Shown: positions 1,402 to 36,696, counted from the stretch's first letter. The stretch: 64,000 nt of DNA from Scenedesmus sp. PABB004 (GCA_014905635.1 JABVCE010000004.1:248001-312000), one strand, 5' to 3'. Numbers and translations: made by a program. Notes: generated by a model from the sequence alone, not told the origin.

Positions 1402-4400
1402 TCACCGCCCCCAGAGCCTCCAGCCGCGCGCCTCGGGCGACATTGCGCTGCCGCCGCCGCTGCCGCCGTCGGCGCCCCCGCTCGCGGCCGGCCCGGCGGG
1501 CGGTGCGGGCTGGCGCTTGGATGCCTTGGCGAACGCCTCGCGGCACAGCAGCGACACGTCCGCCGCCTGCGGCTTGGTGATGCCGGGCCTGCGCACGCGC
1601 GGCCCCGGGCGGGGCGGCGGCCGCGCGTCGGCGTCGCCGCGACGCGGCGGCGCACAGCTCCTGTCGGCGTGCGCGCGCGCGGGCAGGCGCCGCCGGCCGG
1701 GCGCGGCGCGGCCGCCGTGGCTGGGCCCCGCCCCACCCCACCTCACCTTGCCGCGACGAGCCGCTCCACCATGGCCGGCGTGACCGCGGGGCAGACCTCC
1801 AGCACGCACGCGTACGCCGCGACGAGCGCGTCGGGCTGGCGGCTGTCCAGCAGCTCGCGCAGCGACGACAGCTGCCGCGTGCGCGCCGCCAGCTTGTCCG
1901 GCGCGACGTACGGCTCGAAGAACAGCTGCGCCCCGGCCGACGCAGGCGCGGCGCGGCGGGCGCGTCGGCGCGCGGCGGGCCAGGAGGCGCGCGGCGGGCC
2001 TGGAGGCGCGGGGCCTTGCGCACGGCGCGGCGCGGCGCGGCGCGGCACCGCGCCGCGCCGCGCGGCCGCGCCTGCACGTCGCGCTCGTCCTGGACCAGCC
2101 GCGACAGCACCAGGTCCTCGACGTCGCCCCCGCCCCCCGCGGCGGCGCCGCCCTTGGCGGCGGCGCCGCCGAGGCCGAGCGCCGCGGCGGCGGCGGCGGG
2201 GCCGCGGTCAAACGCGCCGACCGCGCCGCTCGCCGCGCGCCGCACGTGCTCCTCCAGCACGCCCTCGGCCACGCGGCGCGCGAAGCCGCGCTCCACAAAG
2301 GTGGTCACGTCGCCAAAGTAGTCTGACACGGGTGGCACAGCGGCACCGCGGCGGCGGCGGCGGCGGCGGCGCCGCAGGTCACGCGGCGCAGGTCGCGCGC
2401 GCGCGCGCGCGCGCGGGGCCGAGCGGCGCCGCGCCCGCGCACGCACCTCCCAGCGTGGCGAGGATGGTGGCGGTGGCCTTGCCGCTGAGCCAGTCGGGGC
2501 ACGCGTACATGCGGCGCCACTGGTCGGCCAGGCCTGCGCGGCAGCGCGGCGGCGCGGCAGCGCCGCTCGGCCGGGCGCGCCCAGCCTCCCGCGCGCGGGC
2601 CGGCTGCGCGGCGCCGCCCGAGCGCCAGCTGTGGAAGATGCGAAGCTCCTGGCGCCGCCGCGCACCTGCATCGCTGAACATCATGCCCACCAGCCGCGCC
2701 GCCCAGGCCTTGGCGAGCTCCAGGAACGCGCGGCAGGTGTCCTCCACGTCCAGCTGCGCGCGGAAGCCCTCCTCCAGCAGCGACTGCGGCACGGCGGCGA
2801 CGCGGGGCGGCGTGCTCAGAGCTCGCGCGTGCGCGTGTGCGGCGGGGCGCCGCGGCGCGCCGTGCTGCGGCGCGCGCCTGCACGTGCTCCGTGAACTGCA
2901 GGCTCTGGCTGTAGCAGTCCAGGGCGTTGTTGAGGAGCGCGCAGACCATCTCAAAGCTCAGCTCGGCCGGGCCAGCGCCGCCGGCGTCGCCCGCCTTTGC
3001 CGGCTTGGCGCCCGCCGCGGCCGGCCGGTCGCCCGCGACGGCGGCCGCAACGCCGCCAGGCTGCAGCAGGCGCGCCTGCGCCTCCACAAACGCCCGCATC
3101 AGCGCCAGGCACCGCCCCGCCGCCGCGAGCAGCACCTCGCCGCGCGACACCTCCTCAATCACCGACACCTGTGGCGCGCGCGCCGCGGGGCGCGGCCGGG
3201 GCGCGGTGGGCGGGCGGGCTGGCGCCGCGGCCCGCGGCCCGCGGCCTGCGCGCTGCGGCAGCCTGCCCGTCGCAGCATCGTTTAGGGCCATGCCCGGGGT
3301 TTAAAAAGAGCCCGACCGCCGCCTGCCACACCTGCTCGTTGAGCATGCGGAAGAAGTCAACCACGCCCGGCGTGCGCAGCGTGCCGTCCGCCATCTGCTG
3401 CGGCTGGCCCGCCAGGTCCTGCGGCCGCGCGCGCGCACGCGCGCGCGCGCGCAGGGCTCGGGCCGCAGCACAGCACGGCGCGGCGCGGCGCGGCGCCGAG
3501 CGCGCGCCCTCGCTGTGCTGCGTGCTGCGTGCTGCGTGCTGCGTGCTGTGTGCTGCGTGCTGCGTGCTGCGTGCTGTGCTGCATCACCTGCGCGAGTATG
3601 GCCTTGAACCACGCGGTCATGGTTCCCTCCATGCGCTCAGTGTAGGAGTCCAGCAGCTGCGCAAAGCCCGGCTGGTCGCCTCCGCGCGCCGCGAGCGGCG
3701 CCACCGGCAGCCGCACGAGCTCCTACGGCACGGCACCGCGGCTCGGGGGCGCACCGCCCCCGCCGGCGCGCGCGCGGCTCTCGCGCTCACGCGCGCGCGC
3801 GCCCGCTCCGCGCGCCGCACCTCCTGCACGCCCAGACCGCGCAGGGTGGCCTGGTACCCGCAGACCCACTGCATCAGCCGCAGCTGCCCGCCCGTCGACA
3901 GCGCCGACGCGACCTGGCCCACCGCGTCCATCGCCTGCGGCGCCGCGCGTGGCGTGCGGGGGCCCGGCGCTCGAGCCCGGCCCGCCGCGGCGCGCGCGGG
4001 GCGCCCGGCCCGTGCCCGGCCCTGCCAGCCCGCCGCGGCGGCGGCCGTCCGCGGCGGCGGCGGCGTTTGAATCGGCCGCACCTGCGCAAACTGGACGTGG
4101 TACATTTGAAAGACCGCGTCAAACACGGCGTAGTGCGGCGGGAAGCAGGGCGCGACGTAGTCGTACGCCTCCGCCAGCTCTCCCTCCAGCGCGCACAGGC
4201 CCTGCGCGCGCGCAGGCCCGCGCCGACGCGGCGGCAGGTGTCGCGCGCGGCGGCGCGGCGCGGCGGCAGCGCGCGCGTGGCGCGGCGGCTGCGGGCGCGC
4301 CGATGCTGCGGCGGCGCCCCCGCGCGGCACGCACGCCGAGCAGCGTCTCCAGCCACACGTCCTCGTCAAACACCTCCTGCTCCCGGATCTGCGCGCCGCG

Positions 4401-6771
4401 GCACAGCACAGCACAGCACGGCGGGGGCGGGGAGGCGTGCGGCACGCCCTCAGCGCGGCGGCGCGCCCTCCGCCCCTCCTCGCCCCTCCTCGCGCCCCCG
4501 CGCCGGCCCTTCCTCGCGCCGCGCCGCGCCGCGCCTGGATGAGCGCGAGCTCCTCGTCCGTCGCGCCCGGCAGGGGCCGGCCGGCGTCGTCGGCGCGCGT
4601 CACGTCGGTCAGCGCGCCCAGGTAGTCCCGCGCCTCGGCCAGCACGCGGTTGCCGTCCTGGTCGTACTTCACCTGGCGCCACGATGGGGCGGCGCGGAGC
4701 GGGCAGCGGCGAGTGCGCGGGCGAGAGAGGGAGGGAGGGAGGGAGGGAGGGAGGGAGGAGGGAGGGAGGGAGGGAGGGAGGGAGGGAGGGAGGAGGGAGG
4801 GAGGGAGGGAGGGAGGCGCGCGGGCGAGGGAGGGAGGGCAGGCGCGGAGGGCAGGCGCGGGGGAAGGGAGGGCGAGCGCGGCGCGGCGCGGCGCGGCGCA
4901 GGCCGCGCCTTGGCGTTGGGCGTGCCGTGCGCGCCGCACAGCGCGAGCAGCGGCGCGAAGCGCGACGCCGCGGCGGCCTCCATCTCCAGCAGCAGGCGCT
5001 CGCGGTAGTGGCGGCGGGACACGTAGGTCGCCTTGGTCGCGGCGTAGTGCGCGTCCATCTGTGTGGTGTGCGTGTGTGTGCGTGTGCACGTGTTTGCGTG
5101 TGTGTGCGTGTGCGTGCGTGTTCGGGGAGAGAGTGTGAAACGGGCGGGCGCGCGCGCGCGCGCGCAGGCAGGCCGGGCCCGGCGCGCTGCACGCTGCGGC
5201 CGGCGCGCCTGCTCCTGCATCTCCACCACGCGCGCGACGTCGACGAGCACGCGCGGGTTGGTCTGCGCCAGGCCATGGTAGTCGCGCACGAGCGCCCACA
5301 GCCGGCCCTCAAACGCCGCCATCGCGTCACCGACCTGCGCGCGCGCGCGGGGGCACGCGTGGGCGGCGTGTGCGACGGGCGCGTGCGTGCGACGCGCGGG
5401 CGCGGCCGCGGGCGCGGCCGCGGGCGCGGCGCGGCGCGGCCAGGCGGCCCGCGCCTGCGTGAGGTACTGCGAAAGCTCGCCCAGTTCTGCCGCCTTGCGC
5501 GCGTTGCTGCGGCGGCGGGCGCGCGCGCGTGGCGTGCGCGCGCGGCGTCGGCGTCCGCCGCGGCCCCGGCGGCGCCCCGCGCGCGGGCCCGCGGCGCCAG
5601 GCGGGCCGCGAGAGCGCGCCGCGCGGCGCGTGCCGCACCGCCGCCAGGCCTCCTTGATGTTGGTGGCCGTGCCCTCCAGCACCGTCAGCCCCTCAAACGC
5701 AGGCACCAGCTCCGCGTCGCCTGCGAGCGGGCGGGCGGGCAGCGGCGCGCCCGGCCGTGGCGCCGGGCGCACGCAGGCGCCGGGGCGGGGCCCCGCCTCC
5801 CGCCACAACCGCCTCGCGCGATCTCCCGCCGCCGCCGCCGCGTCCTGCCGCCGCCGCGCCTGCCGCGAGCAGCTCCTCCACCGCCGCCGCGCGCAGCGGC
5901 AGGTCTATGATGTCCCCGAGCTCCTCCAGCACCTGCGCGCGCGACAGCACCGGCAGCGCCGACGCGGGGCGCCGGGCGAAGTGAGCGGCGGGGGAGGAGG
6001 CGCGGGCCGGCGCCGCGGCGCGCGGCGCCGCGGAGCGGAGCGTGTCCCGCGCGCCTGCGCCACGTTGCGGTGCGCGTGGCTGAGGGCCCTGATTTTGTCA
6101 TGGTTCTCCACCAGCGTGGCGCACTCGCCGCACAGCCTGCGCGCGGCCGCCGCGGCGGCGGGCGGTCGTCAGGCCCGCGCGCGCGGGGCGTCGCGGGCGT
6201 TGCATGGCGCTCAGGGGCGCAGCGCTCAAGGGGCGCACGCACGCGTCGATGTGATCGATGCACATGCGCAGCTTGGCGATGTGGCGGTGGCTCTTGTCCA
6301 GCAGCTGCAGCCCGTAGCGCGCGGCCTCAACCTGCGCCGCCGCGGCGCGCGGCGCGCGGCGTCGCCGGCCGCGGCGCTGCTGCGCACCGCGCGCAGCGCC
6401 GGCCGCGCTGCTGCGCCGCGCGCCCCGCCGCCGCCGCGGGGGCACCTGCGACGCCGTGCTCGCGCTCAGCGCGGTGCGCGCGCCGTGCAGCTTGCTGGCG
6501 ACCTCGGCGCGCAGCTGCTCGAGCCGGCCCAGGTCCTCCGGCGCCGCGAGCAGGCGGCACACATCGGCGATGCCAGCCTCGCGCGCCTCGATCGCCTGCG
6601 CGCGCAGTGCGTGCGCGTGGGCGCCGTGTGCGTGCTGGCGCTGCCGCGGGCGCGCTGCTGCCGCCGCCGCGTGCGCGGCGGGCGTGGACGCGCCTGCTGC
6701 CCGATCGCCACGCCGGCCTGCCCCGCGTCGCCCAGGCCCGCCGCCTTGGCGGCGCTCTCGCTGCGCCGCAT
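1402..6771 (-). CDS. SEC6: Exocyst complex component SEC6/EXOC3, about 21 exons
   Basis: Spliced exons give AIEAREAGIADVCRLLAAPEDL, LCGECATLVENHDKIRALSHAHRNV, YDYVAPCFPPHYAVFD, TPGVVDFFRMLNEQV, CALLNNALDCY, matching plant SEC6; ATG 6771, TGA 1404-1402. Confidence 0.92.
3512..3582. repeat. (GCGTGCT)n heptamer tandem repeat in a SEC6 intron
   Basis: About 10 near-perfect units seen directly. Confidence 0.9.
4727..4838. repeat. (GGGA)n microsatellite in a SEC6 intron
   Basis: Purine-rich GGGA/GGA tract seen directly. Confidence 0.9.
5060..5121. repeat. (TG/CG)n microsatellite in a SEC6 intron
   Basis: Alternating purine-pyrimidine tract next to the acceptor. Confidence 0.8.
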
Positions 6772-7484
6772 GGCGCCGCCGCGGCGACCGACGCTGGCGG
6801 TGGGGCGTCACCCCCCTGGCGCCATGGCGTCCACCGCCGCGCACGCCGCGCGCCGCGCCCACGTCCGTCGACCAACGCTGCGCTGCTGCTGCGTCGTCGG
6901 TTGGCGGCGGGAGGTGGGCGCCGCGCCGCACGCCGGCTCCCGGACGCGAGGGCACAGAGCAGAGCACCGAGCGGCGAGGGGGCGTGAAGCGCCGGGCGGC
7001 GATCAGGGCACGGCGCGGCGCAGAGCGCAGCGGCGGAGCGGCTGCGGCACGGCGTGTGCTGGGGCGTGGCGGGATCGGGCGCGGCGGGAGCTGGGAACGC
7101 CCGACGCCGGGACAGCGGCCGCGGGGTATTGAGCGTTGCGCCGCCGCCGCCGCGACAGAAGAACGCGCCGCCACTGCCGCCCCCGGCGCAGTGCTCGCTC
7201 CGCTCTCCTGCGCCGGGCGTGAACCTCGCCCGCCTCCGGACACCTCGAAGCGGCCGTCCGCCCAGCCAGCCGCGCCGCGCGCCGCCCGTCGCTGCTGTTT
7301 GCCCGAGCCGCCGCCGCCGCGTGCGCAGCAGCCGCAGCCAGGCCCCACCCCCGCGGCCGGGGCATTCCACGCGTCTCGCCCAGGCGACCGCCGCTCAGCG
7401 CTGCAGCAGCCGGCAGCCGGCGCGGCAGCGGCAGCAGCAGCAGCGGCGGCCGCCGCCGGCGGCGCCGGCGCTCGCGCGGCGGCC

Positions 7485-9085
7485 ATGGCGGCGCGGCACA
7501 CGCGGATCGGCGCCTTGGCATCGCAGCCGGTGGACAGCGACGACGACGAGGTGGTGGCGGAGCTGGACGTGGTGGTCAGCAACGAGCTGGCGGAGCACGC
7601 GATGCAGCTGGTGATGCTGCAGCAGCCCCTGCGCCCGACCTGGCGGCCGTACGAGACCGAGCACCCGGGTGCGCGCGGCGCGGCGCGGCGCGGCGCGGCG
7701 CACGCACGGCCGCGCTGCGGACCATGCGGCGGTGCGGCGCGTGGGGCGCCGCGTCGACGCTGTCCGCACATCCGCGCGGCGCAGACGCGGCGGCGCGCTT
7801 CAAGCCGCAGGCGCGGCGGCTGGAGCTGTCGCTGCCGCTGGACACGTCGGCCGACACGTATGGCGTGCCGCCGGACGGCGCGCGCGCGATCACGGCGCTG
7901 GACCTGCGCTCGACGCCCGTGGAGCCGTGCGAGGGCGCGGCGCACGCAGTCGGCGTGGTGCGCGACGGGCGGCTGGTGCTCGTCCCGCTGGACTATGCTC
8001 TGCAGCTGCGCCCCGACATGGCGTCCATGGCGGCAGACCCCGCGCGGCGGCGCGAGGGCGAGGCGAGCGAGGACGACGAGGGCGGCGACGGCGGCCTGAC
8101 GGCGGTCGAGGTCACCGTGAAGCGGCGCGAGACGGAGCGGCAGCAGGCGGCGCGGCTCAAGTCGTTCAGCCACCTGCAGCAGGAGGAGCAGGCGGAGGCG
8201 TGGGTCCCGCTGCAGCTGCACGCGCCCGACAGCGAGACCGCCGACGCGCTGTGGCAGACCGTGCTCAGCGCGCCCGACGACGGCCCCGCCGCGGCGGCCG
8301 CAGCGGCGGCGGCCAACGGCGGCGCGGGCTCGAGCGCGGCGGCCGCGGTGGGCGGCGGCGGCGGCGCGCGCGCGATGCCGGCGCCGCTGAGCCGCACGGC
8401 GTACCTGCGCGCCTTTGTCCCGACGCTCAACGGCGCGGCGGTGCTCGCGGCGGGTGACGCGGCGGACGACGACGGCGACGCGCTGTTTGCCGGCGGCGGC
8501 CCCGGCGCCGGCGCCGGCGCGCTGCCGGGGCACCACGGCGACGCGGTCTCGCCCGACATGGCCGCGGCGGTGGAGGCGGCGGTCAAGTCGCTGGTGGAGC
8601 GCCACCCCGTCGTGTCCATGGCCAACGTGCGGCAGTGGCTGCAGCAGCAGGCCGCGACCGCGCCGCTCGCCCGCGCAGCCGCGCAGCTGAGCGACCCGGT
8701 GCTGGACGGCCTGCTGGTGAGCACGGGGCACGTGGAGGCGATGCAGCGCGCGTATGTCGCGACGACGGGCACGCACCCGCCGGCGGAGCCGATGCGCCAG
8801 GTGCGGGCACGCGCGGGCGCGCCCACGGCGGCGCCGGCAGCGGCGCGCTGGCAGCGCCGCGCCCGTCCCTCCCCGCGCCGCGTGGGCGCCCGATGCCGCC
8901 GCCGCCGCGCGCAGGTGGTGCTCGAGCTGCTGCGCGTGCAGACGACCGTGCGCAAGGGCGACGTCGTCCGCGCCGCGGCGGCGGCGGGGCTGGAGGCGGT
9001 GGAGGCGCACTACCAGCGCGTCATGCGGGAGCTGTGCACCAACATCGGCAACCACTGGCAGCTGCGCTCCAGCGCCGACATGTGA
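7485..9085 (+). CDS. RPC5: RNA polymerase III subunit RPC5 (Sin-like); exons 7485-7668, 7785-8800, 8915-9085
   Basis: DDEVVAELDVVV..LVMLQQPLRPTWRPY..ARFKPQARRLELSLPLD..AVGVVRDGRLVLVPLDYALQLRP; GT-AG introns restore the frame. Confidence 0.88.
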
Positions 9086-9624
9086 CGCGCGACGTGCGCG
9101 TGCGGCGGGCGCGGGGCGGTCGTTGGGCGCTGCAGCGCGTCGAGCGATCGCGGCGGCGCGCTGCTGCGCCGGAGCTCAGCGGCAGGTTAACCTGCCGCAG
9201 GCCCTCCCCGCCCCCCGCCCGGCCCGCCCAACCGGCCCGCCCATCCGGCCCACACAGCCGCCCCAATCGCCCACAACTCGCTCGCGGCCGCGGCCGGCGC
9301 CAGACCGCGCCGCCCTGCGCTCACGTGCACGCGCACGTGTGTTGCCGCGTGCGCAGCGCTCCGCGCGTGCCTCTGCGCGTGCTGAGACCGAGTCACCCGC
9401 TGACGCGCCGGAACACGCGCGACCGAGCAGGGTGCGCTGCCGCAGACAGCGCCGCTGGCCGGCGGGGCGGCAGCGCGCGCCAGCGACGCTTCGCAGGCTG
9501 CCGCTGCGTCCCAAGCCGCGCACTGAGCGCGCCCGCTGCTGCCCGCCGCCCTCGCTGCCGGCGCCCCTGCCGCCGCCGCGGCCGCGAGGTCATGCGGCTG
9601 CCAGCCGCCGCGCAGAGTGCGCGA

Positions 9625-10041
9625 TCAGCCGAGCGGCGTGCTGTCGCGCCGCTCCTCCTCGCCGGCCGGGCCGCGCGCCAGGTCCTCGGCCGCGGCCCGC
9701 AGCTTGGCCAGCTGCTGCTTCTGCGCCGCGCTGAGCGAGGCGACCACGTCTGGCGCGAGAGTGCCGCTGCTGCCGCCCGGGCCGGCGCCGCTGCCGCCGC
9801 TGCTGCCGGCCGGGCCGGCGCCGCCGCCCGGGCCGCTGCCGTTGAGCGTCTCAACGTAGCGGGACCACTGGCGGCCGAATTCCTCCCACTGCGCGGGCGT
9901 GGGCTTGGCCTCCAGGTGCCGCCGCGCCTCGTGGCTCAAGAAATCGTCGGCCATCAGTCTCAGCGGCCCGGGGAGGCGCGCCCGGTGGGCGCGGCGCACC
10001 TGGCGGATGAGGGCCGCCAGGTCCGCGAAGCCCCTCGCCAT
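9625..10041 (-). CDS. SDHAF3: Succinate dehydrogenase assembly factor 3 (ACN9/Sdh7, LYR family), intronless, 138 aa
   Basis: LIRQVRRAHRARLPGPLRLMADDFLSHEARRH..FGRQWSRYVETL..LSAAQKQQLAKL follows the SDHAF3 pattern. Confidence 0.85.
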   Translation of the reverse strand: MARGFADLAALIRQVRRAHRARLPGPLRLMADDFLSHEARRHLEAKPTPAQWEEFGRQWSRYVETLNGSGPGGGAGPAGSSGGSGAGPGGSSGTLAPDVVASLSAAQKQQLAKLRAAAEDLARGPAGEEERRDSTPLG

Positions 10042-10069
10042 GGCGCCGCGGGAGCGCTCCGGTGGGTGC

Positions 10070-10267
10070 TCAGGCGGCCTTGGGGCTGGTGAGCACGCTC
10101 ATCTGCTCCTTCTCCATGTCCAGCAGCTGCGCCTCGCGGTCCATCTCGATCACCAGCGGCACCAGCAGCACCAGCAGCGTGGTGGAGGCCAGCCAGGCGG
10201 CCTTGCCGACGCTCAGGGACAGGCGCTTGGCGACGTAGCGGGCGTCGGCGAGCGTGGGCACGGCCAT
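10070..10267 (-). CDS. TOM22: Mitochondrial import receptor TOM22 (plant TOM9 type), intronless, 65 aa
   Basis: MAVPTLADARYVAKRLSLSVGKAAWLASTTLLVLLVPLVIEMDREAQL; GKAAW..TT..L.VPL.IEMDRE is the TOM22/TOM9 signature. Confidence 0.92.
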   Translation of the reverse strand: MAVPTLADARYVAKRLSLSVGKAAWLASTTLLVLLVPLVIEMDREAQLLDMEKEQMSVLTSPKAA

Positions 10268-10599
10268 GGTGCGCGCAGGGGCGGCGGCGGGCCGGCGGCG
10301 CGCGCGCGTGTGCGGCGGCGGCGGCGGCGGCGGCGCGTGCATGGGCGGCCGCGCGGCGGGTAGGCGGGCGGGCGGCGCGACGGGTCGTCGCGACGGCTGC
10401 GCGGGTCGCCGCGACGGCTGCGCGGCTGCGATCTGGCAGTCGTTCGGGCCGCGCACCGGCGGCGAGCGCACGTTACCGCCGCCGCCGCCTGCCCCGCCGC
10501 ACCCGTCGCCTCGCCCGCCGCCTTGGCTGTGGCGGCCGGTGCGCGCTGCGCCCAGGGCGGCGTGCTCTGCTCGGAGCCGGCGCCGCCGGCCGCGTGGCG

Positions 10600-10749
10600 G
10601 GCCCATGCGACCGCTGCGTGCGGCTTGGCCAATGCGCGTGGGCGTCGGGGCGCGCAGCGGCAGGGCGCCGCCAGGTCCGCGCAGCCACGCACCGCGGTGC
10701 CGTGCGGCGGGCGCCGCCATGGCGCTCCGGTCGCACCGGCCAGTGGGCC
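10600..10749. promoter_or_regulatory. Candidate TOM22 promoter: site II-like GGCCCA/TGGGCC elements and a CCAAT box
   Basis: GGCCCA 10600-10605, CCAAT 10629-10633, TGGGCC 10744-10749; short motifs in a GC-rich background. Confidence 0.35.
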
Positions 10750-11416: not shown

Positions 11417-11424
11417 GCGCGAAT
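11417..11424 (-). promoter_or_regulatory. Possible E2F site (ATTCGCGC) about 190 nt upstream of ORC5
   Basis: Matches WTTSSCSS; ORC genes are typical E2F targets. Confidence 0.35.
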
Positions 11425-18471: not shown

Positions 18472-19101
18472 ATGCACCCGGCGCGCCTCCTGGCGCGCCA
18501 GGACGGCCTGCACAGCCGCCTGGCCGGCGTGGCCTGGCCGGCGGCGCGCCACAGCGGCGGCGGCGGCGGCAGCAGCGGGGCAGCAGCGGCGGCGGCAGCG
18601 GCGCCGCCCCGCCGCGACGTGCGGGCGCACGCGCGGCGCGCCGGCGCCGCCAAGAAGGTCCCCGTGGGTGGGTGCGCGCCGCCGGCACCGCAGCGACAGC
18701 GGCCGGCAGCGGCAGCGCGTGGCCGCTGCCGCGACCGCGACGGCCCGCGCCGCCGCCCGCCGGCCGCCGCCGGTCCGCGCAGTCGAGAAGCTGGAGTGGA
18801 GCGAGCCGCTGGCCGTGCTGCGCTACCCCGACCCGCGGCTGCGCGCGCCCAACGCGCGCATCGGCGTCTTTGACGACTCCCTCGCGCGCCTCGCGGCCGC
18901 GATGTTCAAGGTCATGTACGAGTGAGCGTGTGCCCCGCGCCGCGCGGCGCCCCCGCGCGAGACGCGCGCCCGCCCGCGCGCGGACCTGCAGGCAGCGGCG
19001 GCGGCGGCGGCGGCGCGCCTGGCAGCGGCGCGGCAGCGTCGCGGGGCAGCCGCGCGCCCGGCGGCAGCGCGGCGCCGCTGGCCGGCGCCGCGCCCCGCTC
19101 A

Positions 19102-19142
<41 letters not shown>

Positions 19143-19897
19143 TGTGCGTGTCGCGCGCAGGGACGACGGCGTGGGGCTCGCGGCGCCGCAGGTGGGCGTG
19201 AACGTGCGGCTCATGGTCTTCAACGAGACAGCGACGCCCGGCAGCGCGGCAGAGACGGTGCTCGTCAACCCGACGCTCGTCGAGGCGGGGCGCGGCACCG
19301 CGCTCGACGTCGAGGGCTGCCTCTCCTTCCCGGGCATCTACGCAGACGTCGAGGCGCGGCGGCCGCCGCGCCGCCGCGCGTGTGCAGCGGCAGGGCGCGG
19401 CGCGCCGCACCGCGCTCACCGCCGCACCCCCTGTTCGCCTGCACACGCGCGCAGCGGTCGCTGAAGATTGAGGTGCAGTACCAGGACCTGCAGGGCCGGC
19501 TCTGCCAGCTCGCGCTGCGTGACTTTGAGGCGCGCGTGTTCCAGCATGAGTACGACCACCTCCAGGCGCGCGCTGCAGACAGCCGCGCCGCCGCCGCCGC
19601 CCGCCGCCGCCGCCGCCGCCGCCGCCGCGGAGCAGCCAGGTGCTCTGTTGGTTGCACACCACAGCCCTGAGCTGATCTAGCACCCCTCCCTCCCTCCCGC
19701 CCACCCCCCGCGCGCAGGGCGTGCTGTATCACGACCGCATGCGCGCCGCCGAGCTGGAAAAGGTGCGGCCCGCGCTGGTCGCGCTGGAGGAGGAGTTCCT
19801 CGCGGCGCACCCGGGCGCCGACGTGGTGCGCGTGCCGCCGCCGGCGCGGCCCGGCGCGGCCAAGGCCAAGGGCTTTGGCGGCCCGGCGCGGCGGTGA
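18472..19897 (+). CDS. PDF1B: Peptide deformylase, organellar PDF1B type, 5 exons
   Basis: GVGLAAPQVG, EGCLSFP and QHEYDHLQG motifs; transit-peptide-like N-terminus; two GC-AG introns. Confidence 0.95.
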
Positions 19898-20312: not shown

Positions 20313-21671
20313 ATGGCGGTCTCCACCCTCGCCCGCACCCGGGCCTTTGCGGGTGCGCCGCGGCGGCGCATGTTGCGGCGTGGGCCAATTGCGGGTCCTG
20401 GGCGCGCGCCCGGGGGCGGTCGTCGCCCAGCGCCGCGGGGCAGGGCGCGGGCCCCCGTCTGCGCGCCGGCGGCCCGCCCCGCGCCGTGGGCGCACCCCGG
20501 GGCCGTCATTGACCGCCCCGCGCCCGCCCCACCCCCGCCAGGCGCCTGCAGCACCGCCCGCCCGGCGCAGCCCGCCCGCGCGGTGCGCATGGTCGTGCGC
20601 GCCTCGGCGCAGAAGCAGCAGCAGCTGTCGGCGCTGGTGAAGCCCGCGTGAGTGATCCCGGTCGCCCACCGGGCGGGGGCCGCGCGGGCGCCCCCCACGG
20701 CCCCGCGGCGTCGCGGCAGCGCCGGGGCGCGCGCGCCGCTGCTCCGCCCCGCCGCCGCCGGCCCCGCAGCGGGGCGCGGCAGCAGCGCCTGGCGGGTGCA
20801 GGGTGGCTCGCAGCCGCCAGGGGCGGGGCCCGACCGCGCCGCGCCCGCGCGCCGCGCCCGCGCCCGCAGCGTCGCGACCGCGGTGGCCAACGTCATCATG
20901 GCGCTGCCCGCCGCCGCCGAGGCCGGCAAGCTGTTCGACTTCAACCTCACGCTGCCGATCGTGAGCGCCCGCGCGCCAGCAGCGCGGGCCCCTGGCGCGG
21001 CGCGCGCAGCGGCGTGGCCTGCCGGTCCCAAACGGCGGCGGCAGTGGCAGCGGCGGCAGCAAGCGGTGCCGGCAGCGGCAGTGGCGGTGGCGGTCCAGCG
21101 GCCAGCTGCGCCGGCGGCCGCGGCACCGACGCGCCCGCAGCGGGCGGCCTGGCGCCGGCCGTGCGCCGCGCCCCGCCTCGTGCTCTCGCGCGCCCGCCGC
21201 GCGCGCGCCCCCGCGCTCACAGCCGGTCGCCGCCGCGCCTGCCCGCGCCGCCGCCGCTGTCGCCGCCAGATGGCGAGCGAGATCCTCATCCTCATGGTCT
21301 TCCTTGACAAGTTTTGGTTTGGCCCCGTCGGCAAGGTGCTGGACGAGCGCGACACCCTGCTGCGCAGCCAGCTCGGCAGCGTGAAGGACGGCAGCTCCGA
21401 GCTCTCCAAGCTCACCATGGAGGCCGAGGCGCTGCTCAAGGACGCGCGCAGCGAGGTGAGCGCGATGGTCAACAGCAAGAAGGGCGCGAAGCAGGCCGAG
21501 CTCGACAAGATGTACGCCGAGGCCAAGGCCAAGGTCACCAAGGAGACCGAGGCCGCGATCGCGGTCATGGAGAAGGAGAGCGAGGGCCTGCTCAAGTCGC
21601 TCGACGCGCAGGCTGAGAAGATCAGCGACCAGGTGCTCAAGCGCGTGCTGCCCGAGGGCGTGAAGATCTGA
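20313..21671 (+). CDS. ATPG: Chloroplast ATP synthase CF0 subunit II (b'), nuclear-encoded, 4 exons
   Basis: AAAEAGKLFDFNLTLPI|MASEILILMVFLDKFWFGPVGKVLDERD; bipartite transit peptide. Confidence 0.96.
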
Positions 21672-21678
21672 GCCCGCC

Positions 21679-21704
21679 CGAGCAAACGCCGGAGCGTTTG
21701 CTCG
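21679..21704. repeat. Perfect 11-bp inverted repeat with CGGA loop just after the ATPG stop
   Basis: CGAGCAAACGC-CGGA-GCGTTTGCTCG. Confidence 0.85.
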
Positions 21705-22447
21705 CCGCTGCGGCGCCGCGCGGCGCGGCGCGGCGCGGCGCGGCGCGGCGCACCGGCGCACCGGCGCGGCGGCGCAATGGAGGCCGCGGCACGCGGCGGA
21801 GCGGGGGCGGGAGGGGAGGCGCGCCCGCCGGCGGCGCGGCGGCGCACGCCAGCCGCGGCGGCCGTGCGGCGCGGGGGTCGGGGCGGGGTCTCGTGAGAGC
21901 GAACGAGCGCGCGCGCCGGCGGCGGCCCAACGCGGCCGCGCCGCGCTGCCCTCGGGTCGGGCGGGGCGGGAGCTCCTGCGTGTGCGTGCGGGTAACCCCT
22001 CGCTCGTGCCCCCGAGCTGCGCGGCGGCAGGCAGCGGCAGACGGCCAGCCGCGGCGCAGGGCGCAGCGGCGACGCACACGACCTGCGCCGCGCTCTGCCG
22101 CCGCCCCAGTGTGCACCCTGAGTGAGCAGCGACTCGCCGTGGGAGCCCCCGGCTCACTCGGGCGGCTTCACCGGCGCGCAGCGCCCGCCAGCGCCCGCCT
22201 CCCCGCCTCTAGTCCCGCGCGCGCTCCGGCCGGGCGCCCAGCAGCGCGGTAGACGCTTGCCGTGCCCCCAAACCCCGCGGAGCAGGCAGCGGGTCGCCAG
22301 GCAGCGCAAGGCAGCGGCGGGAGCAGCGGCCCGCCAGGCCGCGCCGCGGCGGCGGCCGGCCCGACCGGCAGGCGGCGGCGGCCGGCAGAGAGGCAGCCAG
22401 CAGGGGCGGCACATCGCTGGGCTCGCAGCGGCGACACGCCGGCCGCG

Positions 22448-24080
22448 ATGGGGGCGCAGGCGATCTTCCTGCAGCACGTCTGCCCCGCGCTCGGCTGCGT
22501 CGTCGCGTTCATCATGTTTGCCTCGCCCCTGCCAGCGGTTCGCGAGGTCGACGCCAACCGCAGCATCGGGGTGCGCGGAGGGGAGGAGCGGCGGCCTCCT
22601 CGCGCGCGCGCGCGCGCGGGCGGCGCGCCGCGCCCACGCCGCCGCCGCCACCGAACGCGCCGCCGCCGCCCGCCGCCGCGCCGCGCCGCTGTGCCGCAGG
22701 AGCTCAACGCGCTGCCGTTCATCGCGATGGCCGTCAACTGCGGTGCGGGCACGGGCGCGCTGCGCCGCCGCGGGGCTGGGCCGGCGCCTCCGCTTGCCCA
22801 CGCCGCCTCCCGTCTGCCTCTCCCTCTCCCTCCCGCCCCTCCACCCAGCCGGCTGGCTCTTTTACGGCACCGTGCTGCGCGACTTTTACGTCTACGCCGG
22901 CAACATCCCCGGCGTCCTCTTCGGCCTGTATTACACGCTCACCTGCTTCAAGTGGAGCAGCGAGCCGGCGCAAAACACGCTGCGCGCGCTGAGCCTCGGC
23001 GCGGTCGCGCTGCTGTACGTCGTCGGGCTCGCGGGCATGGCCGCGGGCCTCGGCCGCGCGGGCATCAAGACGCTCTGGTGCGGCCGCGCACGGCGCCTCC
23101 AGGGGCGTGGCACAGTTGCCGCCCGCCGCCGCCGCCGCCCACGCGCCGCCTGCGCGCCGCGTCCGCGCGTCCGCGCCGCAGGGGGTCGGCGTGCGTCGCG
23201 ATCCTGGGCGTCTACTACACCGCGCCGCTGTCGTCGCTGGCCAAGGTCATCGCGACGCGCGACAGCAGCTCCCTGCACTGGCCGCTCTGCGCCATGAACA
23301 TCATCAACGGCATGCTCTGGTTCGCATACGGCCTGGTGCGCGCGCGCGCGCGCCGCCACGGGGACGCCGCCGCCGCGGGGCAGCCAGGCGGCGCCGCGCG
23401 GCGCCGCGGGGACGCCACGTCGCCGCGCGCGCCGCGCCGCGCCAGCGCTGCCCACGCCTGGCGCGCGCGCGCACCTCGCGCCCTCACGCGCGCGCACCTC
23501 GCGCCCTCACGCACGCCCCCGCCCCCTCCCGCCCCCGCCCGCCCAGGCGCTGCGCGACTGGTTCATCGGCATCCCCAACGGCGCCGGCGCGGCGTTCAAC
23601 GCCGTCGCGCTCGCCTTTTGCTTCGCCTTCCCCGCCAAGGGCCGCAGCCGCGCGGCGCCCGGCCCCGGCGGCGCGCAGCTCGGCGCCAACTGGGGCGCGC
23701 TGCGGCTGCAGAGCATGCGCGACCCGCGCACCGGCGCGGCGGCGCTGCCGGCGGGCGGGTTCTTCGACCTCGCCCAGCTGCGCTGGCGCGCGGGCGACGC
23801 GGCGCGGTCGTTCGTGCGGCTCGCGAGCGGCCGCGCGCCGAGCGCGGCGGCCCTGCCGCGCCCGCCGGACGCGGCGGGCGCGGCGGGCGCGGCGGCGCCG
23901 GGCGACGCCAGCGCGCGCACGAGCCAGGACACGGCCGACCTGCAGGTCCACCACCTGGAGGTCGTCTGCGGCGCCGACGCCGACGCCAAGGCCGCGGCGG
24001 GCAGCGGCGGCGGCGGCAGCAGCGGCAGCGACTCGGCGCGGCGCGGGGGCGGCGGCGCGGACGCGAACGGCGGCGCCTGA
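22448..24080 (+). CDS. SWEET: SWEET (MtN3/saliva) sugar transporter, 5 exons
   Basis: FIMFASPLPAV..G|ELNALPF, YYTAPLSSLAKVIATRDSSSLHWPL..NGMLWFAYGL|ALRDWFIGIPNGAG: two MtN3 repeats. Confidence 0.93.
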
Positions 24081-24163
24081 TGCGGGGGCGGCGGCGGGCC
24101 ATTGCCCGCCGAGCCGGGGGCGTGCTCGAGCGCGCGCGAGTGAGAGAGGGCCTGTACATTGTG

Positions 24164-24168
24164 TTACA
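24164..24168 (-). promoter_or_regulatory. TGTAA poly(A) signal, likely for CSN9
   Basis: Chlorophyte consensus, about 270 nt past the CSN9 stop. Confidence 0.55.
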
Positions 24169-24439
24169 ACTGCGTGCCGCCTGGCGCCCGCTGCGGCCCC
24201 GCCGGCGATCGCTGCACGCGGCAGTGGGCGCGAGAGGCGCAGGCGCCCGCGCCCCTGCGCTGCGCGCGCCGCCGCCGATCGCCACCGCCGCTGGGCGGGA
24301 GCATGCGTGTCTCAGCATGCCGGCGCCAGGGGCGGCTGCGCGCCGCGGCGCGCTGCCGGCGGCGGCGGCGGGCGCGCGCCGCTGCTGCCGCCGCACGCGC
24401 GCCGCCGGCGCCCGCTCGAGGCGCGCCGGCTGCCCGCAG

Positions 24440-24631
24440 CTACTTGGGCATCACCATGTCAGCCTCGTCAAAGTCGTCCTCGAAGCGGTTGAAGAAGTCG
24501 GCATCCACGAGCTTCTCCACGCTCGCGCCCTCGATGGCGTCCAGCTCGCGCTCCTCGTCGTACATCATGAACTCGTCCGCCGCCGCGGCAGCCGCGGCCG
24601 CGGCCGCGGCGCTGCTGCCGGGGCCCTTCAT
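24440..24631 (-). CDS. CSN9: COP9 signalosome subunit 9 (CSNAP/MYEOV2), 63 aa
   Basis: C-terminal EKLVDADFFNRFEDDFDEADM is the F/D-rich CSNAP motif. Confidence 0.85.
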   Translation of the reverse strand: MKGPGSSAAAAAAAAAAADEFMMYDEERELDAIEGASVEKLVDADFFNRFEDDFDEADMVMPK

Positions 24632-24930
24632 GCACCGCGCCGCTGCGCTCGGCGCCGCTGCTGCTGCTCGTGCGCGCGGCGGCGGCAGGCAAGCGGGCCG
24701 TGCGCGCCTGGGCAGGGTGTGGTGGTGATGGTGCTGGGAACAAAAGGCGGAGGGCGCCGCCGATAACGGCGAACCGCACAAGAACCGCGGCGCCGCTCCT
24801 GCACCCGCCGCGTCGCGCGCGCGACGTGCCACAACCGCCGCCGCCGGTCGGCCTGAGAGCACGTGCAGGGGGGCGTGCCATAGAGCAGGGCCGTCGTCGT
24901 GCCGTCTGCGCACACGGGGGGTCGCATCGC

Positions 24931-25013
24931 ATGCCGCCGGCGCGCGTGCGGCAGGAGCCGGAGCAGCAGCAGGAGCTGGAGGGGGAGCAGGCCCAACAGG
25001 CGCAGCAGCAGGC

Positions 25014-25045
<32 letters not shown>

Positions 25046-27713
25046 CCCAGCAGCAGCAGCAGCAGCCGCGCGCCGACGCCGCCGGCGCTGGGACGCTCGC
25101 CGCAGGCGTCGCCCGCCTGGCGATCGACGGCGCGCCGGGCGGCGGCGAGCGCGCGCCCTCGCCCCCGCGCCGCTCGCCCCCGCGCAGCTCGCCCCCGCCC
25201 TCGCCCCCGCCGCCAGGCCTGCTGGCCGCCGCGCGGGCGGCGGCCGCGTCGGGTCAGCTGCGCACCGCCGCGGCGGCCTGCGCGGCGCTGCTGGCGGCCT
25301 GCCCGGGGCACCGGGGCGCGTCGCTGACGCTGGCAGAGGTGCTGCTCGCGGCGGGCCGGCCCGGCGCGGCGGCGGCCGCGCTGGAGGCCGCGCTGCGCGC
25401 CGCGCCGGCGGCGCGTGGCGGCGCGCCGGACGTGGAGCTGCTGCACCTGCTCGGCGTCTGCCAGGCGGCGGCCGGCGCGCTCGACGCGTCGCTCGCCACG
25501 CTGTCGTGCGCGCTGCGCGGCGCCGGCGACCGCGACGCGGCGGCGCGCGCCGAGCTGGAGGCCGCGCTCGCGTCCGCGCTCTACCCCCGCGGCGGCGCGG
25601 CGGCCGAGGCGGCGGCGGCGCTCGTGCTCGAGGCGCTGCGGCGCGACGAGGCGTGCGCGCCGGCGCTGCGGCAGGCCGGGCGCATCGCGGCGGACCGCGG
25701 CCTGTGGGGCGACGCGGCCAGGGTGGCGGTGCGCCTGCTCGCGCGCGCGCCGCGCGACGCCGAGGCGCAGCGCCTCCTCGCGCGCGCGGCACAGGTGCGG
25801 CCGGCGGCGCTGGGCACGGCCGCGGGCGTGCGCCGAGCGGGCCGGCAGCCGCCGCGCGACGCTCCCCATCCTTCAGCCCTGCGGCGTGGCGCGCCGCCCC
25901 CGCCGCCGCGCAGGAGCCGGCCGGCATGGCCGCCGTCCTGCGCGACGTCGGCGCCGCGCCGGGCGCGCCCGCGGCGCTCGCGTTCCTCGGGGACGCGGTC
26001 AAGACGCACGGCGGCGTGGCCGCGGCGGAGGCCCTCTACTGCCGCGCGTCGGCGGCCGCGCCGGCGTGCAGCGGCGCCGCGCTGAGCCTCGCGCACGCGC
26101 TGGAGCTGCGGCACGACTACGGCGCCCTGCTCGGCGTGGCGCGGCGCTTCTGCGCCGCCGCAGCGGGCGACGCGCTCGGGCCGCTCATGCTGGGGGTGCG
26201 CCGCGCCGCGCCGCGCAGCGTGCGGGGCCGCTGCGCTGGGGGGCGTGCGGCGGCGCAGGCGGCCGCGTGCGGCGACGCTGACGCGCGCCCACGCCCATGC
26301 ATGCACGCCGCGCAGGCGGTGCTGGAGCTGCCGCTGCTGGCGCGGCTGGCCGAGACGCCCCACGTGCCCGGCGGCACCGCCTGGCTGCGCGCGTGTGACT
26401 GGGAGCCTGGCCCGAGCCTCGAGGCGCGGCGGGGGGCCGACGCGGGCGCGCGGAGCTGCGCGGACGACCCCGCCGTCGCCGCGCGCTGGCTGGCCGACCG
26501 CGGCGGCGGCGGCGGCGGCGCAGCCGCCGAGAGAGCCATCGAGTACTCTCCCGCCCAGCTCGACGCGCTGGCGCTGCTGCTGACCGCGGCAAAGGCGTGC
26601 TTTGCCGGCGGCGCGCTCGCCGCCGCGGCGGAGCTGCTCGCAGCGGCCGACGCGCCGCGCCGCGCCTCGGCGGCGCCGCTGCACCGGACCCTTGTCCGCA
26701 ACGAGGCGGCCTTTGCCGGCGCGATCGCGCAGCTGCTCTGGGACGCGCCGCCGCCGCCGCTGCGGCACCACGCGCACGCGCCGGGCGCGGGCGGCAGCAC
26801 CGGCGCCGCTGGGGCCAGCTGGGCGGACGCGGCGCCGGTCTTCTTGCTGGGAGACTCACACATCCTGCCGGGTGCGTGCGCGCGCGCAGCGGCGGGGCGC
26901 GGGCGCCGCCGCGGGCGCCGCCTGCGCGGGTGCCCGCGCGCGCCCGCCGACGCGGCCGCTGTGCTGCGCGCCGCGCAGGCGCGTGGCGGGTCATCACTGT
27001 GGCCGGCGCGCCGCGGCTGCTCGTGCCGCTGCTCGTCACGGGGCTCAAGGCCTGGCACCTGCGCGCCGGCGCCGCCTTCTACACGGCGCACCAGTTCTGG
27101 CGCGCCGCCGAGGCGCTGCCGCGCGGCGCGCAGGTCGTGCTGGTCGCCGGCGAGATTGACTGCCGCGAGGGCCTCGCCGCAGCGGTGGAGAAGCTGCGGG
27201 TGCGCGCGCGCTGCGTGTGTGCCGCGTGTGTGCCGCGCGCGCTGCCCGGCCTGCCTGGCGTGGGGCGCCGTGCGCCGCCGGCACCGCCGCCCACGCGCGC
27301 GCATGCTGCGCCACCCGCCCCGCGCAGCACAACTCGCTCGAGCAGGCCGCGGCCGCGACGGCCGAGGTGCTGGCGGGCGCCGCGGCGCGCGTCGCGCGCG
27401 CGAGCGCGGCGCCGCGGTCTTCGTGCACCCCGTGCCGCCGGTGCTGCCGTCGACGCGGCACGCCGTCGCGTTGTTCGAGGCCGCGCTGGGCGACGCGGTG
27501 TCGCGCGCGGCCGCCGGCGAGCCGGGCCTCGGCGCAGGGCGCCTGACGCATCTCGGCTTTGCTCCGGCGCTGCTCACCCCCGACCGGGCCGACCTGGCGC
27601 CGGGGCTCGGCCTGGACGGCAGCCACCTCCACCCGCGCTACCTCCCGCTGCTCGCCGCGGCGCTGGACGCAGCGATCGCTGGCGGTGCAAGCGGCGGCGC
27701 TGGGGCGGGATGA
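24931..27713 (+). CDS. TPR-repeat protein with C-terminal SGNH/GDSL-like hydrolase domain; apparent 2-nt frameshift near 27395
   Basis: N-terminal polyQ, TPR-like helices, then FLLGDSH, VTGLKAWHL, GEIDCREG, LDGSHLHP. Confidence 0.75.
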
Positions 27714-27950
27714 CGGCCGCGGCTGGCGCGGCAGCCTGCGGGCTCTCGCCACGCCCGCAACCGATTGCCGCTGCGGCCCAAAGCGCAGTCCCCACGACAG
27801 CCACCGGCCACCGGCCGCCTCGTCTCTGCTGCGGTTCAACAGCTAAAACACCACCAGCGCAGTCCCCCTCGCCGCTCCTGGCCCGTGGAGGCCGCAGCGT
27901 GCTGCGTGCACACGCGGCGCCCTGCGCAGGGCCGCACGCTGCGGGCCCGC

Positions 27951-30900
27951 TCAGCCGACGAACAGGCCGCCGCCGCGGTGCCGCCGCCGGGGAACTGAAG
28001 CTCCTGCGAGAGCGGGGGGGGGGGGGGGCACGAGGGGCCGCGTGAGGGGCCGCGCAGCGCGCGAGGCGCTCAGCAGGTGCGCGTGCGCCGCCCGAACCTC
28101 AATCAAGATGTACAGGCCTCCGGCGGCCGCGCCGCCGACGAGCGGCGCGAAGAAGGGAATCCAAGCGTAAGCGAACTCCGACGAGCCCTGCGCGGCGGCC
28201 GGGGAGCGGGGTGAACGCGGGCCGGCGGCGGCGGCGCCGGCCCGGCGCGCGCGGGCACCCCTGGCACGCGCCTTGTTGGGGATGGGCAGCAGCGCGTGCG
28301 CGAGCCGCGGCCCGAGGTCGCGCGCGGGGTTGGCCCCGTACGCGGTCGGGCCGCCCAGCCCTGCGGCGCCGCGCGGCGCTCGGTTTGACTGCGCCGCCCC
28401 GCGCGCCTGGACTCCCAGCCCCTGCACTCCGTGCCCGCCGCACCCGAGATGCAGACCGTGACGACAAAGCAGATGAGCAGGTACTGCAGGCCCTGCTCGT
28501 AGAGGATCTTGGACTCGCTGCCCTCGGGGAAGCGCCGCGCCTGCGCGGCACCGGCGCCGCGTGACGCGGCGCGGAGCGGCGTGGGCGCACAGCCTGCGCG
28601 CGAGACCGCCCGCAGCGCTGGGGCACCGCGCCGCCCACCGCGCTCCCCGCGCTCCCCGCGCGCCGCGCCTGCAGCTCCACGAGCAGCACCAGCAGGATGA
28701 GCGCGGTCGTGCCCATCGCCTGCGACGGCCGCGCGCGGCGGCCGCGGTCAAGAGCCGCGGTCGAGGCCTCGACACCTCGCCGCCGCCCCGCGCGCAGCAG
28801 CGCCGCGGCCCCGTGGGGGCGGCGGCCGCACCTCAGTGAGGAAGTTATAGATGGGCGAGTAGATCGCGGGCCGCGTCGCAAAGATGCTGAGCTTGGCGTT
28901 GGCGTCCGCCGTCAGCGCCGCCTGGGCGCGCGCGCACCGCGGGCGGGCGCGGCGGCTGGGCGCGGCGCGGCGCGGGAGAGGGAGGGACGCGCGGCGCGGC
29001 GGCGCCACGGGCAGCGCGGGAGAGGGAGGGACGCGCGGCGCGGCGGCGCCACGCGCAGCGCGGCGCGCGCGCGCGGACCTGGTACAGCGCGTTGGCCCGC
29101 CGCTTCTCAGCCTCCAGCTCGCTGTCAAACTCGGCGGCGCAGCGTTCGCCGCGCTCGGCGGCGCCCGGCGCCGGCACGTCCACCACGAGCGCGTCGCGCG
29201 GCGCCTGGTCGGCGGCGGCGCCGTGGCCGTGGCGGTGGCCGCGCAGCGGCGCGGCGCCGTCGCTCGGCGGCGCGCCGCCGTCGCTGAGCGGCGCGGCGTC
29301 GCCGCCCGCGTCGCTGAGCGCCTTGCTGCCGCGCCGGCGCAGGCCGGTCGCGCCCGCCGCGCCGCTGTAGCAGCTGGGGCAGGTGCGCTGCAGCAGCACG
29401 CGCTCCGCGTGCACCGCCTCGAGGTGGCGCTGCAGGTCTGCGGCGGCGGCGGCGGCGGCGGCGGCGCGTGCGCGCGTGCGTGGGCCGCCGGCGCGGCGGC
29501 CGCGCAGCGGTCGGGCGCCACGCCGCGCCGCGCCAGGCAGCGGCGGCCTCGGCGGCCGGCTCACCCGCGACCTGGATCGTCTTGCGCGCGAGCGGGTGCG
29601 CCGCCTTGTCGCCGGGGCGGCTGGCCACGCGGCTCGCGTGGCGTGAGAGCGGGTCGTCGTGGAAGTACTCGGCCAGGACCTGGGAGGGGGGAGGGGGTCG
29701 GCAGGCGCGGCGGCGGGGGTTTGGGCTTGCAGGTTTCAAGGGCGTGCGAGGGCTTGCAGGTTTTAGAGCGCGCGCCAGGGCGTGTCCGGGGGCGTTCGTG
29801 GACGGCCGAGTCCCTCCGCCCCCGCACCTGGGCGGGCGTCTCCTCATGGATCACGTCCTGCGCGGCGCCGGCCGCGAGCGCGGCGGCGGCGGCGGCGGCG
29901 GCCGGCGGGCGCGCATGGGCGGCTGCGCGGGCCGCCAGCGCACGGCGCCGAGGCGCGGCGCGGCGCGGGGCGCCGCGCGCGGCCGGCCGGCCGGGCGCTC
30001 GCGGCGCACCCACCCCTGGGCGGAGGAAGTACATGGCGTGCGCGAGCGAGGTGAGCGGGTTGAGCCGCTCCGCCGTCACCTGGGCGCGCGGGCGCGGCGG
30101 TTGTGGTCGCAACGACGCGCGAGCGCGGCGCCGTGCGGTGCGGCGCGCCGCCCCGCCGCAGCGCAGCAGCGCCGGGGCGGCGGCCGCGGGCGCCACCTTG
30201 CGGTCGGGGCGCGTCGCGTACGAGGCGATCTGCAGCGCCGACTCGCGCATGTGGTCGCGGCGGCGCAGCAGCGCGTCGTCCTTGTCGTGCGAGGCCGGCT
30301 CGGGGAGGGTCTTGTAGTGCGGCAGGAAGTGCAGCCAGTGCAGCACCGCGCCTGCGCCGCGCGGGCGCGCCGAGCGGCTGCTGAGACGGCAGGAAGGGGC
30401 GGCGAGGAAGAGGGAGGGCGGCAGCGGCGGCGGCGGCGGCCAGAGCGCGCGGGCGCGTTGCCGCGCGCGCGCGCACCCACGAACGCTCCGGCGAGCTCCG
30501 CGAGGGAGAGGCAGATGAAGTCGACGCCGGTGAGGTTGCCCCACACCCACTGCGCGAGGCACATCGCGGGGTTGAGCTTGGCCGAGACCTTGCCCCAGAT
30601 GACGAGGGGCGCGAGGAAGGCGAAGCCAAAGGTCCACACCGTCCAGCCCCTTGCGCGCGGGGCGGCGGCGAGGGAGCGGCGCGTCGGCCGTGCAGCCCGG
30701 TGCGTCCGCGGCGCCGCAGCACGGCGCGCGCCCCGCCGGGCCCGGCCGCGGGCGGCGCCGCACCAGCCCATGGCGTGGCCCTTGGTGGAGGGGAGCAGCT
30801 CGTTGGCGAGCGCGGCCTCGCCGGTGTAGATGACCATGATCATGCCTGCATGGCATCGCGGCGGGTCGGGCGAGCGCCGGCGCCCGCTGCTGCTCCCGCG

Positions 30901-36616: not shown

Positions 36617-36696
<80 letters not shown>

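Follow-up and report, generated by a model that had tools for sequence, protein, structure and literature searches.

Homology-supported GC-AG introns with a strict donor flank are concentrated in three genes of a GC-rich green-algal window

The DNA analysed here is a 64,000-nucleotide (nt) window from Scenedesmus sp. PABB004 (GCA_014905635.1, JABVCE010000004.1:248001-312000), numbered from its first letter, and our subject is a set of 13 predicted introns in three of its genes that begin with GC instead of GT at the donor site and end with the ordinary AG. The three genes, placed by Pfam matches and by spliced alignment of homologous proteins, are the following.

1402..6771, minus strand: Sec6 (exocyst component) gene; Pfam Sec6 matches and spliced alignments to P0003-P0010.
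18785..19897, plus strand: peptide deformylase gene, conserved part; Pfam Pep_deformylase match and spliced alignments to 31 homologues.
27969..28921, minus strand: aquaglyceroporin (MIP family) gene, conserved part; Pfam MIP match and spliced alignments to P0013-P0032 (20 homologues).

Given that the heptamer AGGCGCG is common in the window, with 85 copies on the two strands and no enrichment over similar heptamers (31-155 copies), the motif alone is no evidence for a donor, and protein continuity was needed as the test. Introns were placed with a purpose-written protein-to-DNA spliced aligner that chooses donor dinucleotides freely, using homologue sets that include open reading frames (ORFs) derived from relatives' transcriptomes. 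For each junction we scanned all frame-keeping donor and acceptor positions within 18 nt, with any dinucleotides (~450 pairs), scoring each spliced peptide against every homologue with an anchor on either side of the junction; only junctions with support from this boundary scan were counted. We obtained 28 homology-supported introns, 13 of them GC-AG (46%; 95% interval 28-66%): 9/20 in Sec6, 2/3 in the deformylase and 2/5 in the aquaglyceroporin. All 13 start with GC, end with AG and restore the reading frame, and conserved residues reach both sides of each junction. The original prediction, made from the window's sequence, had named 12 of these sites as GC donors; each reads AG/GCGCG on the strand given for it (the slash marks the exon-intron boundary), and homology puts an intron start at every one. 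The nine in Sec6 are listed here with their boundary-scan scores.

6596..6693, minus strand: GC-AG intron, phase 0; 2 homologues; GC-AG scores 134, best pair 138, best GT-AG 66.
5933..6054, minus strand: GC-AG intron, phase 0; 7 homologues; co-optimal at 565; best GT-AG 432, which would delete 3 conserved residues.
5721..5859, minus strand: GC-AG intron, phase 1, with an AG/GCGCG donor; 7 homologues; GC-AG scores 402, best pair 403; no GT-AG pair within 18 nt.
5335..5454, minus strand: GC-AG intron, phase 0; 6 homologues; co-optimal; no GT-AG pair within 18 nt.
5059..5208, minus strand: GC-AG intron, phase 0; 6 homologues; co-optimal at 479; best GT-AG 242.
4673..4908, minus strand: GC-AG intron, phase 0; 7 homologues; co-optimal; no GT-AG pair.
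4389..4534, minus strand: GC-AG intron, phase 0; 7 homologues; GC-AG scores 494, best pair 506 (a CC..GC pair); no GT-AG pair within 18 nt.
2784..2877, minus strand: GC-AG intron, phase 0; 7 homologues; co-optimal at 537; best GT-AG 397.
1926..2071, minus strand: GC-AG intron, phase 0; 6 homologues; GC-AG scores 402, best pair 404; best GT-AG 294, which drops 2 conserved residues.

The Sec6 model comprises 880 codons in 21 exons, separated by 20 introns (9 GC-AG, 11 GT-AG). Its spliced coding sequence is free of stops over all 880 codons, has 94% GC at third positions and a strong codon bias, and aligns to homologues with high scores along its whole length. Seven homologues were available, two of them ORFs from the transcriptome of one relative, and 2-7 were used per junction; the P0003 and P0005 alignments each yield exactly 9 GC donors among the 20 introns. 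The eight GC donors that had been proposed among about 20 Sec6 introns are all retained, and the donor at 5859, which had been missed, brings the count to nine. When evaluating each Sec6 boundary, we observed that GC-AG was co-optimal at 5/9 GC junctions, 1-4 points under the best pair at three and 12 points under it at 4534, while in the same scan GT-AG was co-optimal at 9/11 GT introns, the other two falling short of the best pair by 9-15 points. Since GT introns show deficits of 9-15 points too, the small GC-AG deficits can be taken as noise of the method.

Several further features of this gene were noted. Long simple repeats lie inside introns on the minus strand, of CCCT type in 4673-4908, of GCACGCA type in 3419-3587 and of CACA/CGCA type in 5059-5208. 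P0006 and P0007, the ORFs from one relative's transcriptome, are identical save for a 42-residue segment that corresponds to window exon 5334-5209; this exon (5209-5334, minus strand, 42 codons) is flanked by GC-AG introns with donors 5454 and 5208. The difference is an exon-skipping isoform in the relative, the GC donors themselves being read in the window DNA only. The Sec6 model deposited for a related Scenedesmus strain, P0002, matches nothing in residues 1-282 of the transcript-derived P0006; its own residues 1-141 resemble no other Sec6 and align to window 4544-5427 (minus strand) only in a shifted frame, a match taken from a 32-bit-score alignment that mis-traced at least one junction (2077 for 2071). 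The frame-shifted stretch spans window exons separated by GC donors, and the P0002 model is probably broken where the window has GC donors, a GT-based model having failed there.

In the deformylase gene we found three homology-supported introns, one GT and two GC.

18922..19160, plus strand: GT intron; chosen with 25/31 homologues.
19354..19454, plus strand: GC-AG intron, phase 0; chosen with 20/31 homologues, 21/31 anchoring; co-optimal at 1012; best GT-AG 680 (332 worse).
19566..19717, plus strand: GC-AG intron, phase 0; chosen with 19/31 homologues, 19/31 anchoring; co-optimal; no GT-AG pair within 18 nt.

The 31 homologues, of 215-300 residues, come from 150 matches listed in a representative search. 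Donor 19566 falls in the region of the conserved metal-binding His motif, and the Pfam Pep_deformylase profile agrees with the model, one exon ending at profile position 105 and the next starting at 105.

The conserved part of the aquaglyceroporin gene, whose coordinates fix neither gene end, holds five introns with donors at 28831 (GT), 28668 (GC), 28443 (GT, ambiguous), 28271 (GC) and 28097 (GT).

28541..28668, minus strand: GC-AG intron, phase 0; 2/20 homologues anchor; GC-AG scores 69, best pair 71, best GT-AG 34.
28188..28271, minus strand: GC-AG intron, phase 0; 20/20 homologues; co-optimal at 1079; no GT-AG pair within 18 nt.

P0013 is continuous across the junction at 28668, and donor 28271 stands directly after the second NPA box. 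The ambiguous intron (28361-28452, minus strand) scores 93 with a GC donor at 28452 and 81 with a GT donor at 28443 (3 homologues); it was counted as GT, and donor 28452 could represent a 14th GC-AG intron or one of an alternative donor pair. Short, mostly GC 'introns' that the aligner opened in low-homology N-terminal stretches of the deformylase and porin alignments were judged spurious and left uncounted.

Over the three genes, the unconstrained boundary scans made GC-AG co-optimal at 8/13 GC junctions and 1-12 points under the best pair at the remaining five, while a GT-AG alternative within 18 nt was absent at 6/13 and 35-332 points worse at 7/13. Allowing GC donors raised the alignment scores by 369-525 points for Sec6 (7 homologues), 60-85 for the deformylase (10) and 76-117 for the porin (6), and in a decoy test that added one dinucleotide to GT, GC was the best of 15 with 6/6 homologues, CG following close behind. 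These results bear on the possibility that the gene models are wrong, such that nearby GT donors are really used and the GC sites are chance heptamer matches in 80%-GC DNA. The abundance of AGGCGCG would favour such an error, as would the phase-0 GT sites that lie 6-18 nt upstream of five Sec6 GC donors; however, Sec6 GT alternatives within 18 nt are absent at 4/9 GC junctions and at the other five would remove residues that 2-7 homologues conserve, at a cost of 68-237 points, and GT-only Sec6 alignments forfeit the entire gain given above. We consider mis-modelling very improbable.

The GC donors are set apart by their flank, since AG at -2/-1 together with GCG at +3 to +5 is present in 13/13 GC donors versus 5/15 GT donors (Fisher p=0.00025). 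They are also biased toward phase 0 (12/13 versus 8/15; p=0.038); the claim that all are phase 0 holds for the 12 sites first named and fails for 5859, which is phase 1. GT donors had been described as mostly GTGCG, which fits 9/15 of them and not the other six. In size the two classes are close, with medians of 128 nt for GC and 132 nt for GT introns (GC introns span 84-236 nt), and their acceptors are similar. U12-type donor or branch-site motifs were found in 0/28 introns. A branch-like YTNAY motif occurs in the last 70 nt of 7/28 introns, whose A content is ~7%, and whatever signal marks the branch site must be atypical or highly degenerate. GC-AG introns of the major spliceosome carry a stronger consensus at the other donor positions, and the strict flank seen here is the usual compensation of such introns.

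The flank also speaks to whether the C at +2 is an artefact, either a sequencing or assembly error (T to C) or the mark of decaying pseudogenes. An error would not select only donors with a perfect flank, and 133 G/GTGCG sites outside the three genes keep their T, which makes a context-specific error unlikely; the long open frame, codon bias and full-length alignment of Sec6 argue against a pseudogene. We regard both as extremely improbable.

Collectively, these data suggest that the 13 sites are very likely genuine U2-type GC-AG introns in the nuclear genome of a green alga of ~80% GC related to Scenedesmus and Tetradesmus, and that they arose by compensated T-to-C drift. Under this model, a strong substitution bias from AT to GC would have replaced T at donor +2 by C in some introns, this being the sole change in the GT...AG dinucleotides that the spliceosome would tolerate. 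The C would be tolerated only where the other donor positions match the local consensus AG/G-GCG, a flank that should leave pairing with ordinary small nuclear RNAs (snRNAs) sufficient.

Alternatively, the spliceosome itself may have adapted, an altered U1 5' end, U6 or U1-C making GYGCG the preferred donor and C at +2 nearly neutral, as the original prediction had entertained. This is compatible with compensated drift and would account for the local consensus, which carries G at +3 in 27/28 and C at +4 in 24/28 donors and so departs at both positions from the textbook GTRAGT, whereas two lower-GC relatives, L001 and L002, use GTGAGT- and GTACGT-type donors. A neutral C, however, predicts GC donors with all flanks and in all genes, and what we observed is a requirement for the full flank and no detectable GC excess outside the three genes. 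Since GC donors occur only with a perfect flank, ordinary snRNA pairing is favoured over a changed spliceosome; the latter is not required by the data, as ordinary base-pairing compensation predicts the flank bias. We judge adaptation to be quite unlikely as the explanation. No snRNA genes were detected in the 64-kb window by Rfam, at gathering thresholds or at E<=0.1.

The compositional setting is extreme. GC content lies at 75-85% in every 2-kb bin of the window (1-64000), and within the three modelled genes it reaches 76%, 48% and 94% at codon positions 1, 2 and 3 and 86% in introns. A Mychonastes paper names 72.4% as the highest GC content in Sphaeropleales (PMC7354681), a maximum that the window exceeds. 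For comparison with lower-GC relatives, which the original prediction had proposed as a check, we used L001 and L002, metagenome contigs of 53% GC that each encode part of a Sec6 relative. Aligned with homologue P0008, their donors are GT in 17/17 cases, and allowing GC donors gained only 0-4 points on each contig (7 homologues) against the 369-525 gained on the window Sec6. One intron of L002, at codon 294 in phase 0, occupies exactly the position of window GC donor 4908, and its donor is GT. The proposal that GC pressure moved donors from GT to GC is thus favoured by the GT-only relatives and by the match at 4908; it falls short on the choice of genes, as set out below.

Several observations weigh against compensated drift as the whole explanation, and some of them against the introns themselves. 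Splicing at the 13 GC sites is deduced from protein homology only, and the weakest junctions, 6693 and 28668, have 2 anchoring homologues each. In the Sec6 decoy test, a CG donor regained 348-463 points compared to 369-525 for GC; because this decoy nearly matches GC, the score over the whole alignment is a weak control, and the case depends on the per-junction scans.

A further objection concerns the rest of the window, which we assessed with an indirect transition test that compares the 60 nt on either side of a site and asks how far the codon-usage score falls across it. Of the known donors 28/28 pass (with the gene left out of training, 11/13 GC and 12/15 GT); the baseline, taken over all positions outside the three genes, is a pass rate of 4.5%. 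There, 34/133 G/GTGCG sites pass, ~28 over baseline, while G/GCGCG passes at 30/900 with no excess in the 64-kb window; with the full exonic flank, AG/GCGCG passes at 1/55 sites versus 8/28 for AG/GTGCG. The sole passing AG/GCGCG (55521) has a likely GT donor 26 nt away, at 55495, and passing GT sites coincide with Pfam-supported exon ends in ORC5, the CXC gene and the SpoU gene. Window-wide enrichment of GC donors, as expected of the composition-driven kind, was therefore not found within the window by this indirect test, and the 'very high rate' first claimed applies to the three genes and does not extend to their neighbours. The DNA around the 44 candidate GT donors found elsewhere is moreover at least as GC-rich as the three genes (89% versus 85% in the first 60 intron bases; 93.7% versus 92.3% at third codon positions), so GC pressure alone does not explain which genes carry GC donors.

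GC donors are thus concentrated in three genes. By the indirect test, the share over the whole window is probably 10-20%, a rough estimate corresponding to 13-15 GC introns of about 100; at a share of ~15%, the chance of finding at least 9 GC donors in 20 introns is 0.0013. The difference between 46% in the three genes and probably 10-20% over the window points to a gene-specific factor on top of base composition, for which relaxed selection on splicing efficiency, regulated splicing and intron age are candidates.

Two other routes to a window-wide estimate were tried and set aside. Listing GT/GC..AG pairs between the Pfam-anchored exons of RPC5 and ORC5 returned dozens of frame-compatible pairs, a choice undecidable without close homologues, and a simple gene finder built from the three genes recovered 28/28 known introns but also predicted, on both strands, enormous genes split by hundreds of introns, and was rejected as an estimator. 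Around the G-patch gene (53400-59600, minus strand) we noted many sense-strand AGGCGCG copies, those at 54861, 55341 and 55521 lying near the test threshold; the GT donor at 55495 fits the end of the G-patch domain better than the nearby AGGCGCG sites.

The last objection comes from intron positions. Where L001 or L002 covers Sec6, all five window GT introns (6242, 5638, 4334, 4081, 3820) share codon and phase with a relative's intron, compared to 1/6 comparable GC introns, namely 4908 (Fisher p=0.015; one gene, small numbers). Donors 5859 and 5208 are offset by 2 and 6 nt from a relative's intron, and 6054, 5454 and 4534 have no counterpart intron in L001 or L002. Because only 4908 is shared, a T-to-C change in an old intron is directly shown once, and the remaining GC introns may be younger or shifted. 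This raises the idea that the GC-AG introns make up a class that is younger or more labile, gained or shifted in the lineage and hence clustered by gene, for which the position data are the principal support. The counts are nonetheless small and drawn from one gene and two relatives at unspecified distance; intron positions differ between L001 and L002 too; and the 13 GC introns, compared by eye, lack the shared sequence or length of an inserted element family. We consider this origin unlikely. A stronger version, in which the GC-AG introns form a distinct, younger, gene-clustered class that was born with a GC donor in a perfect AG/GCGCG frame or quickly gained it, perhaps as weak, regulatable donors and possibly with co-evolved U1/U6, seems to us decidedly doubtful; the only cassette exon seen skipped in a relative's transcriptome does correspond to a window exon between two GC-AG introns.

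A Pfam scan of 442 stop-to-stop frames, each of at least 80 codons, returned matches on both strands to Sec6, RPC5, an LYR protein, Tom22, ORC5, peptide deformylase and ATP synthase b, and to SWEET, a MIP channel, APH, SpoU methylase, a CXC protein, G-patch and Mem_trans; the matched genes are eukaryotic. The top relatives of the Sec6 protein are from Scenedesmus, Tetradesmus, Chromochloris, Monoraphidium and Raphidocelis, which places the DNA in a green alga close to Sphaeropleales. At 33402-39195, overlapping stop-free frames of 1499 and 1592 codons without a Pfam match run on opposite strands; they are probably a by-product of the extreme GC content, and open frames would then be useless as gene evidence here. 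An Rfam match to the bacterial small RNA isrG at 36486-36711 (plus strand; 27 bits against a gathering score of 100, E=0.003) is below threshold and was taken as chance in GC-rich DNA.

The kind of phenomenon described here is already known, and the window adds a case from a green alga at extreme GC. The closest parallel is Emiliania huxleyi, for which PMC4028052 gives 135/241 curated junctions as GC-AG (56%), offers a genome GC of 65% as the reason, cites RT-PCR (reverse-transcription polymerase chain reaction) and expressed sequence tag (EST) support, and reports that gene predictors restricted to GT mispredict junctions. Both are GC-rich algae in which about half of the junctions, curated there and homology-supported in three genes here, are GC-AG and the acceptor AG is kept. 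They differ in that Emiliania is a haptophyte, from a different supergroup, with 65% genome GC as opposed to ~80% here, and in that its share is transcriptome-wide with RT-PCR and EST proof, whereas ours covers three genes, apparently not the remainder of the window, and comes from protein homology alone. Gene predictors that expect GT will mis-model genes of this sort, with P0002 as a probable example of the trouble described for Emiliania.

For the pelagophytes Aureococcus anophagefferens and Pelagomonas calceolata, bioRxiv 10.1101/2024.10.30.620910 reports 14-17% predicted GC-AG introns, ascribed to GC content, and only 0.32% in their lower-GC relative Aureoumbra lagunensis. On these figures, the pelagophyte share falls in the same range as our rough window estimate, and the low share in Aureoumbra parallels the GT-only donors of L001 and L002; pelagophytes are stramenopiles, not green algae, and their figures come from genome annotations. 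The pairing that marks composition-driven GC-AG introns is found here as well, with 13/28 GC-AG introns at 75-85% GC and GT donors in lower-GC relatives, which adds a green alga of ~80% GC to the haptophytes and pelagophytes already known for composition-linked GC-AG enrichment. A literature search combining GC-AG with green-algal names, of incomplete coverage and excluding supplements, returned no report of such a rate for green algae.

Plants average 1.2% GC-AG introns over 121 genomes, according to PMC6310983, and the rate above about 1% that had been claimed for this window is amply borne out in the three genes, whose 13/28 lies far over that average. In mammals, an accumulation of GT-to-GC changes and a link to alternative splicing are described in PMC2490688. 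The introns studied here are like the rare GC-AG introns of plants and animals in their major spliceosome, their C at +2 and their AG 3' end; unlike them, they are 10 to 40 times more frequent, and their compensating consensus is the local AG/G-GCG and not the textbook one. The compensation rule is very clean, with perfect flanks in 13/13, but it is tentative, as is the crowding of GC donors into few genes, where most hold positions that the two relatives do not share; neither seems to appear in the accessible parts of the cited papers. The window also raises a new question, namely why GC donors are almost entirely limited to a few genes despite equally GC-rich neighbours.

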